A stretch of DNA of 18,311 bases from Chlamydiia bacterium (GTDB taxonomy: Bacteria > Chlamydiota > Chlamydiia > Chlamydiales > JAAKFQ01), in NCBI GenBank assembly GCA_041688145.1, contig JBDNIV010000004.1, positions 1 through 18,311 of the forward strand, in the 5' to 3' direction. Below the pieces are notes generated by a model. It did not search any database. It saw nothing but the letters and a program-made list of their open reading frames with translations, and had not been told where the DNA came from. The stretch's first letter is position 1. Every line of letters starts with the position of its first letter. Both the position numbers and the translations under genes were made by a program. Positions 8,385-13,076 of this stretch are shown in pieces.

Positions 8385-11300
8385 ATGAGATCTTTGTCGA
8401 AAAAAGCCTTTCTCTTCAGCTTTGTGCTTATCGGCTTTTCTGGCCCAGCTTTTTCTAATGCTCAAGTATCGCCAGAAAAAGCGCCTCTTGTAGCAGAAGC
8501 AAAACCAGCGCCTGCAAAAAAGCCCCTAACTACAGAAAAATCTGAAAAAAAAGTCGAAAAAATCTCTCCTAAAGAGGTTAGCAAACATCTAGAAAAATCA
8601 AGTCCTTTTTCTTCGTCAGAAAAAGACCGCTATGTAGTCAATTACACTAATGTTGATGTCAAAGAAGTCATTCGCTTTGTAGGAAAAGTAGCTAATCTAA
8701 ACTTCTCGTATGATCCTAATGAGCTTAATTTTGCTATCACAATGGTCTCTGAAGGACCCGCTCATATCTCTGACATCTTGTCTACCCTTGTGCAGACTCT
8801 ACGCATCCATGGATTAAGCCTTGTGCCTGGCAAAGGCATGTTGCTTATATGTGCAGAAGGTAAAGTTAAAGGAGCCGCTCCCTTAGTTGATAATTTTGAG
8901 TCCATTGGCGCTTTTGCAAAAACGCCCTTGGTTGCACGCGCTTTCATGCTAGAAAACATTCTACCCTCTTCAGCGCTGGCTCTTATACAACCTATGATCT
9001 CACCTTCTGCTCTAGCTGAAGCTTCTGACGAAACGCATTATCTTATTGTCACTGATACGCCCACCAATATCACTCAGTTAGAAAAATACTTAGAACTCCT
9101 CAATCACCCTCATGAGCTCTACGAAATCTCCATTTTCCGCGCTCAAAACCATTTTGCTTCTGCTTTAGCTACGCTTACACAAAAAGTGATGGAAAGCATG
9201 GCGGGCAAAACGCCTCTTATGCTGCTCCCTCAGCAAAATGCTAATGCTATTTTGATTATATCAACGCCATTTCTTACAGAAAAAAGCTTAAGCATTTTAG
9301 AAAAGCTCGACGAGGAACCTGTTCAGAGTAAGTCCTTACCTAAAAACCTTGAGCATGAAAATGTCTTCCTCTACACCCCTAAGTTTCGTGGGGGAAAAGA
9401 ACTTATTCAAGCTCTTTCTACTGTAGAAAAAACAGTGCAAGGCAGTGGCTTTTTAAACCAAGACCTCATCCAAACCATTGAATCTGCGCATTGGATTAGT
9501 GAAACAGGCTCTATTGTCTTTCTTGGAGATAAAGGTGCTTTAACAAAGCTCACTGAGCTTTTGGCTACGATGGATATTGATACGAGTAAAATGGCTGCAG
9601 CGCCCAGCTTTTTAGTCTATGTACCTCAGTTTCTTTCATACCCTGACCTAAAATCAGCTTTAGAGCATGTTACACTAGCACTTGCTGGATCAGATCAAGC
9701 TGCTACAGATGTCGCTCTTGCACTCAAAAGCGCTAAATACTCGAATGCAACAGGCACGCTGACATTTACAGGATCTCGAGAAAGCTTAGCGCAAATTACA
9801 GCGACCTTAGGACAACTTGATAATAAAGAGTCTGTGACCCGTTTAGAGCGGCAATTTTTCCTTTATCGCCCTCAGTACAAAAAGCCTAAAGAGCTTTTGC
9901 AAACTCTAAAAGAGGTCGCATCAGGGCTTAAGAACTCAAAAATCTTAGACACTGCCGTGATAGAGTCTATTCAATGCGCTAAACTCATTATAGATACTCA
10001 AGGTGTGCTGTTCACAGGTAGTGAGCAAGTACTCTCTGAGATCAAAGCTTTACTAAAAAACATTGATGCGCAATTTGGTGGCACTAGCCACATCTCTAAC
10101 TTTGGAGAGGGCGCATATCTTATCTACAGCATAAAGTACGTCTCTGAGCAAAACCTACTATCTTCTTTAGACCAAATAGCTACCAAACTTGACTCAGGCC
10201 CCTATCCTGATGAAGATCTGATCCGTGCACTCAAACATACAAAATACATTCAGCAGACTCATTCTTTTATATTTGCAGGTGATGAGGTCACGCTGCGTGA
10301 GATTTCAGAAATGCTCACTAAGCTTGATACAGAAGCTAATGCAACAAATAATCCTACAGAGTTTCTTGTCTATCGCCCCCACTACCTGCAGGGTAAAGAG
10401 CTTCTTTCAGAACTTGATACCTTAGAGTCTAGCTTGAAGCGCTCAGGCTTACATAACCCAGCTCTTCTCTCTTCAATCCAAAGTGCTACTTGGTCAGCTA
10501 AAAGCGGCTCTCTTATTTTATCGGGAAGTAAACCTGTAATAGAAGACATCGAGCAAATGCTCAAGTCGATTGATAGTCCTAATGCAGGACTCAATCATGA
10601 ACTTTTTATTTATAAAGTAGAACACGTTCCCCCAAGGGAGCTTTTACACAACTTGAAAGAAGCTTCTGAACAGCTTTCAGGAGAAGATGAAAAGCTCATT
10701 TTAGATGCAGTTGACTCTGCAAAAGTTTTTAAGAATACAAATTCTATTTCTTTTAGTGGCTCACAGTATACGACAAATAAGCTAAAATCTATGCTTAAAG
10801 AGCTTGATATCACAAGCAACTATGCCAAGGGTACAACGGTTTTTATTTACCGCCCAAAAAACCAAACGTATAGCGAATTAGACTCTAGCTTAAAAAATAT
10901 CATTGATCGGTTAGAGAAGGAAAACGCAGGACAAGACCTTGTCTACTTAGTAGAATCCCGAGAGTGGGACGGCAGTTCTAGCAGTTATATTTTCACTGGT
11001 TCTACAGCAGCTATTGAGAAGTTAAAAGCACTGCTTGCTCAAGTTGATGTCCCATCAACTTCTGCTCAGGGCGTTGAAGTTTACACTTTAAAAAATGTCT
11101 CTGCTGCCGACGCTGACAGCTACCTCAAAGAACTCGAAAGCAACCTAAAAAAAGGCAAAAATGTTGATGAGGATGTGGTCTATGTTCTTGAACATGCTCA
11201 GGTAGCTGGTCATAGCCACTCGATTATCTTAAGAGGTAAAAAGGCCGCCATCGCTCATGTACAGGCGCTTTTAACTCAGTTTGATACAGAGAAAAATGCA

Positions 11301-13076: not shown

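Follow-up and report, generated by a model that had tools for sequence, protein, structure and literature searches.

A chlamydial type III secretion secretin with eleven N3-type units, and co-variation of unit number with needle ruler length

In Chlamydiota whose secretin CdsC carries a tandem array of N3-type domains, the needle ruler CdsP lengthens by ∼22–24 residues per secretin unit. The secretin described here, a protein of 1,563 aa with eleven such units, is encoded on 18,311 nucleotides of Chlamydiia bacterium DNA (contig JBDNIV010000004.1 of assembly GCA_041688145.1; hereafter, the window), and it is an ordinary member of its clade.

Domain architecture of CdsC

The cdsC (SctC) reading frame at 8385–13076 (+ strand, like all features below) is free of stops and translates into 1,563 aa. 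A probable Sec signal peptide (read from the sequence, with a basic start and a hydropathy peak at residue 8) and a short K/P/E-rich segment together occupy the first ∼80 aa (8385–8624). The GspD-like N0 domain that follows (8625–8864; PF21305 at aa 85–153) sets in at aa 81 (about aa 25–100 in array proteins), and its model superimposes on N0 of ETEC GspD (4jtm) with a Z score of 11.8 and an rmsd of 1.7 over 77 residues. N1 (8922–9110; AlphaFold2 secondary structure) and N2 (9117–9320; AlphaFold2 and structure alignment) are both predicted to be β-α-β-β-α domains. The N0–N2 model aligns with PulD (6hcg; Z score 11.0, rmsd 4.3 over 222 residues), although such alignments are driven mainly by N0–N2 and barely probe the array units. 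At the C-terminal end (12111–13076) lie the secretin β-barrel core and C-terminal helices; PF00263 matches aa 1348–1519 with 119.6 bits (cut-off 27.5), and the best Foldseek matches of the core model are GspD structures (5zdh and 5wq7; E about 1e-31).

Between N2 and the core, a self-built HMM converged on exactly 11 units (aa 323–1242; 9351–12110), each scoring 82–100 bits, as the initial annotation had claimed for 9357–12100. In shuffled versions of the protein, it found no match in 19 of 20 and one match in the remaining one. Pfam Secretin_N (PF03958) undercounts the array, with five stretches passing its cut-off singly, and a BLASTP self-comparison of CdsC yielded no repeats; HMM iteration alone revealed the units. 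The most conserved of them, R11 (11829–12110), is the core-adjacent N3 according to Pfam, the self-built HMM, and identity comparison (on average 48% identical to the last units of homologs, which are 57% identical among themselves). The other ten, R1–R10 (9351–11807, starting at 9351, 9597, 9843, 10104, 10350, 10590, 10827, 11061, 11316, and 11568), are extra N3-type units, as assigned by the HMM, the alignment, models of R1–R3 and R9–R10, and the match to GspD N2/N3. Conservation by position is poor in the middle units (27% identity). Because the units (∼82 aa; start-to-start spacing 78–87 aa) share only 18–37% pairwise identity and no DNA tandem repeat was found within the gene, the array appears to be old. 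Including N0, N1, and N2, the protein has 14 N-domains, not the about 13 ring-building domains counted initially; the overall description of a T3SS secretin of ∼1,563 aa with N-domain array and normal core was borne out by profiles and operon.

AlphaFold2 models built on alignments of 98 and 100 rows (with a mean pLDDT of 88.8 and 83.4, respectively) covered R1–R3 and R9–R11. All six units are predicted to be β-α-α′-β-β-α, that is, the N-domain fold with one extra short helix. The β-α-β-β-α-like pattern proposed earlier therefore holds for the fold, and needs amending by this helix and by the N3 type of the units. A profile of the internal units R9–R10 matches N2/N3 of solved GspD secretins (best E 1.3e-12, sequence). 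Models and profile agree with the earlier proposal and indicate that the units are secretin N-domains; as judged by sequence, the extra ones are copies of N3 specifically. The models leave the relative domain orientation unfixed (pTM 0.46 and 0.55), and the inter-unit linkers are short, variable, and of low pLDDT. A complex prediction with four R9–R10 copies (score 0.00, mark 0.42) speaks neither for nor against rings.

CdsC is the secretin of the chlamydial injectisome

The window contig begins inside the T3SS operon (cdsD sits at the end of contig C4) and carries the order cdsG-sctI-cdsN-cdsO-cdsP-cdsQ-pkn5-cdsC, which is conserved across the phylum. The genes preceding cdsC encode the needle chaperone CdsG (270–728; NF052304 135.8 bits, below the cut-off of 170), an SctI-like inner rod protein of 222 aa that is not lengthened (744–1412; PF17001 and TIGR02497, both below cut-off), the ATPase CdsN (1426–2736; TIGR02546 622.5 bits, above the cut-off of 604.75), the stalk CdsO (3657–4160; PF16789), CdsP (see below), the C-ring protein CdsQ (5365–6663; PF01052, and TIGR02551 with 95.1 bits, just below the cut-off of 100.8), and a Pkn5-like Ser/Thr kinase (6647–8212; PF00069 and synteny), named after the known chlamydial gene order. 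The window cdsC thus occupies the last position of the cdsD-E-F-G-sctI-N-O-P-Q-pkn5-C operon. Its stop is overlapped by a gene for a TPR lipoprotein (13063–14025), assigned from its position and from ESM Atlas, where the top matches are Chlamydiota lipoprotein/TPR clusters (score 0.98). This gene lies directly 3′ of cdsC in 43 of the 50 array loci with enough downstream DNA, and its product is a candidate secretin-assembly (pilotin-like) factor.

The C-terminal secretin β-barrel and the periplasmic N0 and KH-like N-domains place the protein in the Secretin superfamily, and its sequence and gene context identify it as CdsC, the chlamydial injectisome's outer-membrane secretin, which derives from GspD. 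It is highly improbable that the gene encodes instead a type II secretion GspD, akin to the giant T2SS secretins of Planctomycetota/Verrucomicrobiota, although the profile scores would suggest so: TIGR02517 (GspD) reaches 395.4 bits (cut-off 351.35; a sum over five stretches, inflated by repeats), whereas TIGR02516 (SctC; 75.9, cut-off 238.45) and NF011873 (41.8, cut-off 524) stay far below. Likewise, relatives are named GspD/PulD or hypothetical in databases, and the best structural matches are GspD. Chlamydial T3SS secretins are, however, known to be T2SS-like (PMC3459982 and PMC4682100; these and the papers cited by PMC number below are drawn on in excerpt). GspD (N0-N1-N2-N3) is therefore the right baseline, and not InvG/YscC; with its N2, the window CdsC departs from the proteobacterial N0-N1-N3 plan. 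Furthermore, the gene closes the T3SS operon here and in most loci compared; no gspE/F/G-type genes lie beside it, its neighbors being T3SS genes, the TPR lipoprotein, yidD, and der; and the same genome encodes a separate GspD-like secretin on contig C42 (756-aa frame, 22% identical). In a secretin tree (quick LG+G4, with a long branch on the C42 protein), the window CdsC groups with the operon-linked Chlamydiota secretins (58-row clade, SH-aLRT 99), and both the C42 protein and the giants fall outside. Thus, synteny and tree largely refute the T2SS assignment.

The giants also amplified N-domains in tandem between the N-terminal domains and the core. They share 22–27% identity over N3 and core with the chlamydial proteins, and with the chlamydial unit profile, only 0–3 units per protein exceed 12 bits in the 57 giants scanned; because of these weak scores, the two amplifications look independent, and inheritance of the array from the giants is not supported by the tree. 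The large unique N-terminal extension of C. trachomatis CdsC (about 250 aa) is absent from the window CdsC; this extension is variable within the phylum and is a hallmark of Chlamydia CdsC rather than of the ortholog group. The probability that the array is an assembly artefact is negligible: the genome is in 51 contigs and no aligned contig of other runs spans the gene whole, but the low unit identity without DNA repeat, two relatives of different provenance (identities of 94% and 77%) that likewise have 1,563 aa and 11 units, and contigs of three other runs matching the gene at ≥99% without any listed joint, indel, or differing letter, refute it.

Arrays of N3-type units are the norm in one clade of Chlamydiota

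The initial annotation had treated the gene as exceptional, unless such arrays were the already described norm of the lineage. They proved to be the norm: 130 of 192 complete secretins examined contain 4–29 units (median 9), with at least 11 in 38 and more than 11 in 26 of the array proteins. The highest count was 43, in one metagenomic protein (46 N-domains). These counts come from a non-random survey, in which the best 80 of 394 matches to an alignment rich in arrays make up loci L001–L080 and 140 further regions were hand-picked (long contigs preferred, with varied families and lengths). Before counting, we excluded secretin frames with an open end, duplicates by the last 300 residues, and two of 194 secretins missing N0–N2 (L036 and L116); the counts leave out families f30 (17 genomes; longer-secretin open frames of 829–1,619 aa) and f37. 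No description of expanded chlamydial secretins was found in the literature covered, which did not include the cryotomography of Simkania, Parachlamydia, and Protochlamydia (Pilhofer et al, 2014) that may already show a long basal body.

Array proteins belong to a single clade, whose 13 families include Rhabdochlamydiaceae and Simkaniaceae records (MAGs, 7–10 units), and this clade comprises 217 of 400 genomes, about half of the sampled Chlamydiota species. Duplication can be recent (adjacent units 95% identical in L159), and short paralogs with only N0 and N3 occur. In family f11 (three genomes), N2 was duplicated instead of N3, which Pfam and a second profile detect and the N3-unit profile does not. 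Other N2–N3 inserts gave no Secretin_N match in 25 cases, nor in three more.

CdsP lengthens with the number of units

The reading frame at 4157–5362 (401 aa), which overlaps the cdsO stop and lies between cdsO and cdsQ, has no Pfam or NCBIfam match. Its homologs share a conserved C-terminal domain (jackhmmer), and the gene in the same position in a Chlamydia-sized genome encodes 283 aa, the length given for CdsP (PMC4682100). By its position and this C-terminal domain, it qualifies as an SctP, a family encoded between sctO and sctQ with a variable N-terminal part and a conserved C-terminal switch domain, and presumably acts as the needle-length ruler in these organisms. That ruler length sets needle length was shown for YscP and InvJ (PMC4831731; PMC2835726) and is assumed for CdsP (PMC4682100); the flagellar ruler gauges rod and hook together (PMC6972891), and the ruler model does not apply in simple form to every T3SS, an example being Shigella Spa32 (PMC2835726).

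Of the 130 array proteins, four were dropped for want of the C-terminal domain in the product of the gene following cdsO, and another 53 because the DNA retrieved yielded no cdsO-cdsP pair. Among the 73 distinct proteins compared, CdsP length correlated with unit count (Spearman 0.60; slope 21.8 aa per unit). Independent contrasts gave r 0.76 and 23.7 aa per unit on the secretin tree (45 contrasts of the same, nine of opposite sign) and r 0.80 and 24.4 aa per unit on the CdsN tree (66 of the 73; 36 and 13). The co-variation persists for up to 14 units (r 0.70), and genome size was ruled out as a confounder, as the slope stays at 22.3 aa per unit with it as a covariate (n = 52). The other operon proteins are flat or nearly so (SctI 0.1–0.2, CdsD 1.2–1.3, CdsQ 1.7–2.3, and CdsO −0.8 aa per unit), and all 25 array genomes examined for it, with 4–29 units, have a CdsJ frame of 305–345 aa. 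Co-lengthening of cdsD, cdsJ, or sctI, the first two of which the initial annotation had suggested checking, was thus rejected; in the window genome itself, cdsD is cut by the contig end.

Extended to a single unit, the line predicts 258 aa, and in families f3 and f4, which have almost no N2–N3 insert, CdsP has 219–286 aa in 10 of 11 loci (769 in one). In 41 non-array loci, CdsP tracked the length of the N2–N3 insert (rho 0.63; contrasts 30 to 9) but not that of the pre-N0 extension (rho 0.16; 23 to 17). In the three f11 genomes, the gene after cdsO encodes 323 aa with one extra N2-type domain and 396–399 aa with five. Scatter at a fixed count is considerable (305–489 aa at eight units and 341–545 at 11), the raw correlations within f10, f7, and the named loci are not significant (rho 0.34, 0.40, and 0.24), and the contrasts for CdsQ and Pkn5 are slightly positive too (r 0.21–0.37). 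In the window and its only family relative, CdsP has ∼400 aa at 11–12 units and so falls 76 aa short of the line (residual SD 64). Relative to f4, the window CdsP gained ∼120 aa, roughly 20 nm, which is less than ten 4-nm rings.

Discussion

C. trachomatis CdsC (921 aa; PMC4682100) shares with the window protein the operon position, the GspD-type N0-N1-N2-N3-core arrangement, and the secretin clade. CdsC of f4, which appears to correspond to Chlamydiaceae, has one N3, a gap of 14–27 aa between N2 and N3, and its extra length before N0, whereas the window CdsC has a short pre-N0 part and ten extra N3 units between N2 and N3. GspD, PulD, and XcpQ (5wq7, 5zdh, 6hcg, and 4e9j) have the same domain order and N-domain fold and are the best matches in sequence and structure. 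The GspD N3 carries a loop insertion. At the position of this loop, the window CdsC has the extra helix, and it differs from T2SS GspD further in its eleven N3-type units and in serving a T3SS. InvG, MxiD, YscC, and EscC share the fold and the role of outer ring in the injectisome, but belong to another secretin lineage without N2 and have about 560–610 aa. The working model for extra stacked N-domain rings across a wide periplasm is PilQ of Thermus thermophilus (N0–N5); it builds six stacked rings spanning 35 nm in a 70-nm periplasm (PMC4463427; PMC5745081). PilQ serves type IV pili and DNA uptake and its structure is solved, whereas the window CdsC has its 14 N-domains from sequence and models and is coupled to a ruler.

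It is fairly probable that the array units stack as rings into a long periplasmic needle sheath, with the CdsP ruler grown in step. In one Chlamydiota clade, tandem duplication inserted further N3 copies ahead of the core and behind N2, and their number keeps changing; each unit, after oligomerization, would most likely add one more ring. The array would then be a spacer tube leading from the outer-membrane core to N0, which would dock on the CdsD/CdsJ rings of the inner membrane, themselves unchanged. On its way to the surface, the needle would have to pass through this tube, and CdsP would therefore have lengthened by its ∼22–24 residues per unit. If a ruler extends by 0.15–0.19 nm per residue (helix rise and the YscP figure), each unit would contribute 3.3–4.6 nm, close to what Thermus PilQ implies with about 35 nm for six rings and the core. 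The window basal body might then exceed the 34 nm of C. trachomatis by ∼25–45 nm and span a locally widened periplasm; in elementary bodies of chlamydiae, the periplasm is 13.8 nm wide but reaches 28.6 nm where T3SS arrays sit (PMC4336559). The long tube proposed initially gains independent indirect support from the co-variation with CdsP; ring formation, axial rise, and periplasm width are inferred. By arithmetic, a straight stack of 29–43 units would measure 70–190 nm, a hard fit for a small elementary body.

The ruler would co-vary equally well if the neck were elastic or telescoping, that is, if loosely stacked or beads-on-a-string units changed their spacing on host contact and acted as a spring or stroke-length element. 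The linkers and low pTM described above are compatible with this, PilQ ring distances vary (PMC5745081), and when C. trachomatis contacts its host, compaction of periplasmic domains brings the basal body down from 34 nm to 29 nm (PMC4682100). Yet no sequence feature sets such a neck apart from a fixed tube, and the near-constant ruler slope up to 21 units is simpler with a fixed rise, so that this possibility seems rather unlikely. A bolder version is doubtful: a long-stroke injectisome in about half of Chlamydiota, with a collapsible sheath of 4 to >40 N3 rings (60 to >150 nm) in a deep inner-membrane pit. The number of domains would fix the sheath length digitally, CdsP would match it, compaction on host contact would push the tip out by tens of nanometers, and the N2–N3 junction would be a spacer slot filled independently by N3 copies, N2 copies, coiled coils, or other inserts.

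Alternatively, the array might lie off the needle axis, as looped-out arms that scaffold the envelope or bind partners or as a product of near-neutral drift through tandem duplication, with CdsP and array each responding to something else, for instance envelope thickness or host type. The range of 4–43 units, recent duplications, middle units without positional conservation, paralogs reduced to N0 and N3, and the window CdsP being short for its unit count would all fit. However, the ruler follows several unrelated kinds of N2–N3 insert and not pre-N0 extensions, which points to the axis; the core motif and N-domain fold of the unit are kept in 1,237 aligned copies; and the remaining operon proteins do not lengthen. 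An off-axis array is thus improbable.

The injectisomes imaged to date combine basal bodies of around 30 nm with secretins of three or four N-domains. About half of the sampled Chlamydiota species fall into a clade that appears to exceed this size range, which suggests that its injectisomes have a much longer body than those imaged. With stacked rings as the preferred reading, the coupling between ruler and neck would offer a naturally replicated test of whether the distance measured by SctP rulers starts at the export gate and includes the basal body. It also raises the question of whether envelope width sets the length of the secretion machine or the reverse. The figure of about 3–4.5 nm per unit can be tested by tomography, and envelope geometry would become predictable from sequence alone for uncultured chlamydiae.

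Results

Translation of the frame at 8385–13076 (+) yielded 1563 residues without a stop; a GTG lies upstream, in frame, at 8307, and relatives 94% and 77% identical match the window protein in start methionine and length. Pfam placed a GspD-like N0 domain at residues 85–153 and the secretin core at 1348–1519, and also detected Secretin_N domains. An HMM iterated from a single unit to convergence resolved residues 323–1242 (nt 9351–12110) into 11 units (R1–R11, the last being the core-adjacent N3) with a period of 78–87 residues and 18–37% identity among them; on the shuffled protein it found no unit in 19 of 20 shuffles and one unit in the other. 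No tandem repeat was found in the DNA of the gene. AlphaFold2 predicted, with high local confidence, a beta-alpha-beta-beta-alpha topology for N1 and N2 and a beta-alpha-alpha'-beta-beta-alpha fold for all six units modelled (R1–R3 and R9–R11; pLDDT 88.8 and 83.4; pTM 0.46 and 0.55, domain orientation being uncertain). A profile built from two internal units matched, at E 1.3e-12, the N2/N3 domains of GspD proteins with solved structures, and Foldseek aligned R9-R10-R11-core with seven GspD-type chains over 566–594 columns. Contigs of three other freshwater runs, and of one that may be the source, align to the gene at 99% identity or better, none spanning it whole, and no joints, indels or differing letters are listed for them over it. 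The eleven-unit giant secretin proposed in the initial annotation is thus borne out by domain search, HMM, structure prediction, GspD profile match and independent contigs.

The protein passed the NCBIfam GspD model (395 vs a cut-off of 351) and failed the proteobacterial SctC model (76 vs 238), by which a proteobacterial-type SctC was rejected. A GspD-like score is expected, because chlamydial T3SS secretins are described as clustering inside T2SS secretins (PMC3459982, PMC4682100). The genes 5' of the secretin (cdsG, SctI-like, SctN ATPase, cdsO, cdsP, cdsQ and kinase; Pfam/NCBIfam) follow the order found across the phylum, and the genome (1.28 Mb, 92% complete) encodes one further secretin, 22% identical, on contig C42. 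A functional GspD was rejected on this operon context and the other secretin. Operon order, T2SS-like ancestry and the separate C42 secretin therefore place the gene among the CdsC orthologs, with N0-N1-N2-N3 as baseline.

Overlapping the cdsC stop is a gene for a 320-aa TPR lipoprotein with a lipobox-like Cys21 (13063–14025); among loci with room downstream, such a gene followed cdsC in 43 of 50 array loci and in the single non-array locus (1/1). Its product is a candidate pilotin-like factor, although the T3SS operons of C. trachomatis are stated to lack a pilotin (PMC4682100). Tandem cdsC pairs occur in genome G334 and in locus L081 (family f6), where the copies flank the TPR lipoprotein gene. 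Between cdsN and cdsO lies a 147-aa ORF (2965–3408) without a Pfam/NCBIfam match, whose two halves look, we presume, like ribbon-helix-helix; no homolog was found in the other loci compared, and one paralog, 48% identical, is on contig C16. Two ORFs with hydrophobic stretches, 14565–15359 (264 aa) and 17199–17942 (247 aa), matched no Pfam/NCBIfam family and could, as a guess, encode inclusion-membrane-type proteins.

A query of N3 plus core matched in 392 of the 400 genomes of the phylum. The 220 loci and the window gave 194 distinct complete secretins, 192 with the N-terminal N0 region, in a non-random sample (the best 80 of 394 matches to an array-rich alignment, and 140 regions picked for long contigs and spread of family and length). 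Within this sample, 130 of 192 secretins carried 4–29 N3-type units (median 9) and 62 one or two; 38 of the 130 array proteins had 11 or more units, and 26 more than 11. The window gene is hence typical of its clade and not unique. In 13 family codes (f1, f7, f9, f10, f12, f16, f20, f21, f23, f24, f26, f28 and f40), every long secretin examined had an array (77 of 77); the 58 from 22 other codes were non-array. Named records with 7–10 units came from Rhabdochlamydiaceae, Ca. Rhabdochlamydia, Simkaniaceae, Ca. Sacchlamyda and Ca. Acheromyda; a Ca. Algichlamydia secretin had 8, and longer forms 28, 29 and 43 (2754–3840 aa). In the longest arrays (L159, L160, L183, P0025, P0026; 21–43 units), growth came from a unit of only ~73 aa, inserted behind R1 and before about seven ordinary 84-aa units.

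In a tree of the non-array part, a branch with support 97 separates the arrays, with four short CdsC paralogs among them, from the rest. In a rooted N3+core tree (69 rows), single-N3 CdsCs surround an array clade (SH-aLRT 99), and the C42 secretin and ten Planctomycetota/Verrucomicrobiota-type giants (source names for three) fall outside. These quick trees are most simply read as one gain inside Chlamydiota; a common origin with the Planctomycetota/Verrucomicrobiota giants is unsupported by tree and unit scores. Position conservation, counted backwards from the last unit, is 57, 45, 42 and 39%, and 27% for middle units. Because middle units are unconserved by position and neighbouring units are 95% identical in one genome, the array is taken to be still turning over.

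Many array-clade genomes carry a second CdsC paralog of 430–600 aa (the first secretin of L147; L178, 6567–8189, −; L179, 9077–10723, +; L180, 6989–8566, −), and these short forms nest within the array clade in the non-array-part tree. The one scanned consists of signal, N0, a single N3 and core, and nothing else. Three lie outside the T3SS operon, near what we take, from sequence, to be dapB/kdsA/lpt-like genes and next to a DUF5399 gene and an unknown gene of 870 aa. The window genome has none at E<=1e-3.

The length of CdsP, the presumed needle-length ruler (SctP) encoded after cdsO, increased with unit count (rho 0.60, 21.8 aa per unit, n=73 distinct proteins). Independent contrasts gave r 0.76 and a slope of 23.7 on the secretin tree (45 same, 9 opposite), and r 0.80 and 24.4 on the CdsN tree (66 of the 73 proteins; 36 same, 13 opposite). 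Genome size as the cause was rejected by test. Taken family by family, the raw correlation was clear in f9 alone (rho 0.81, n=10); in f7, f10 and the named loci it did not reach significance. In the window and its one family relative, CdsP has 400 aa at 11–12 units, 76 under the line (SD 64), which is a point against ruler–neck coupling. A second CdsP-like ORF (~170–230 aa) lies 3' of cdsP in many f9/f10/f26 operons (loci with it: L149, L153, L156, L158, L161, L146, L152, L159, L166, L171).

The inner-membrane rings, for which parallel lengthening had been raised initially, do not grow with the array: median CdsD is 589 aa in 49 array loci vs 631 in 32 others, and CdsJ spans 305–345 aa across 25 array genomes with 4–29 units (window genome, 323 aa). 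Median SctI is 216 aa in array loci vs 241 in others. Contrasts for CdsQ and the kinase were small and positive (r 0.21–0.37), their slopes of 2–3 aa per unit being about an order of magnitude below that of CdsP.

Outside the array clade, the N2–N3 junction holds inserts of other kinds. In f11 (L113, L098, L089, L090), N2 rather than N3 is tandem-duplicated, an independent event, with one extra copy in two genomes and five in two others; the gene after cdsO encodes 323 aa where one extra domain is present and 396–399 aa where there are five (three genomes). The f8 CdsCs (L114, 1456–4572, −; L130, 1537–5241, −) have an E/K/Q-rich insert of 1040–1236 aa between N2 and N3 that, judged by its residues, looks like a coiled coil, and several other families have inserts of 100–340 residues; Pfam matched Secretin_N in neither kind, and nothing at all in the f8 insert. 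Across 41 non-array loci, CdsP followed N2–N3 insert length (rho 0.63; contrasts 30 same, 9 opposite) and did not track pre-N0 extension (rho 0.16; 23/17). Such extensions, of 785–2009 low-complexity residues ahead of N0, occur in L100, L119, L122 (f17) and L123 (f36), with CdsC reaching 2758 aa; that of L123 contains near-identical internal repeats.

Discussion

The array units rather probably form a stacked-ring sheath around the needle. In Yersinia and Salmonella, SctP length is described as determining how long the needle becomes (PMC4831731, PMC2835726), with exceptions in Shigella (PMC2835726); the flagellar ruler homolog measures rod plus hook (PMC6972891), and CdsP, of 283 aa, is treated as the ruler of chlamydiae, whose needle is given as 28 nm and basal body as 34 nm (PMC4682100). 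If a ruler has to thread the basal body, an on-axis spacer should lengthen it and an off-axis segment should not; that CdsP tracks N2–N3 spacers and not the pre-N0 extension is the pattern expected for such a ruler. An elastic or telescoping neck is doubtful, and an array that loops out or drifts, with a shared cause behind its length and that of CdsP, is less likely still.

For a stacked-ring sheath, with rulers extending 0.15–0.19 nm per residue, 22–24 residues would correspond to 3.3–4.6 nm per unit. Thermus PilQ implies a similar spacing of rings: its stack of six, together with the core, is reported to measure ~35 nm, the periplasm being 70 nm wide (PMC4463427, PMC5745081), and by analogy the window CdsC may work like PilQ. 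Ten extra rings of 2.5–4.5 nm each would add 25–45 nm to its basal body; the short window CdsP speaks for the lower part of this range, or for an outer needle that is short. The Chlamydia periplasm is reported to widen locally from 13.8 to 28.6 nm at T3SS sites (PMC4336559); the periplasm therefore need not be wide throughout. A tie between the array and the five-layered envelope described for arthropod-associated Rhabdochlamydia (PMC9723776) is speculation.

In the literature searched, neither N3 arrays of chlamydial secretins nor secretin–ruler co-variation was found described; Simkania cryotomography of 2014 could already show the structure. An array found clade-wide, with a ruler to match, makes a result that is both quantitative and testable.
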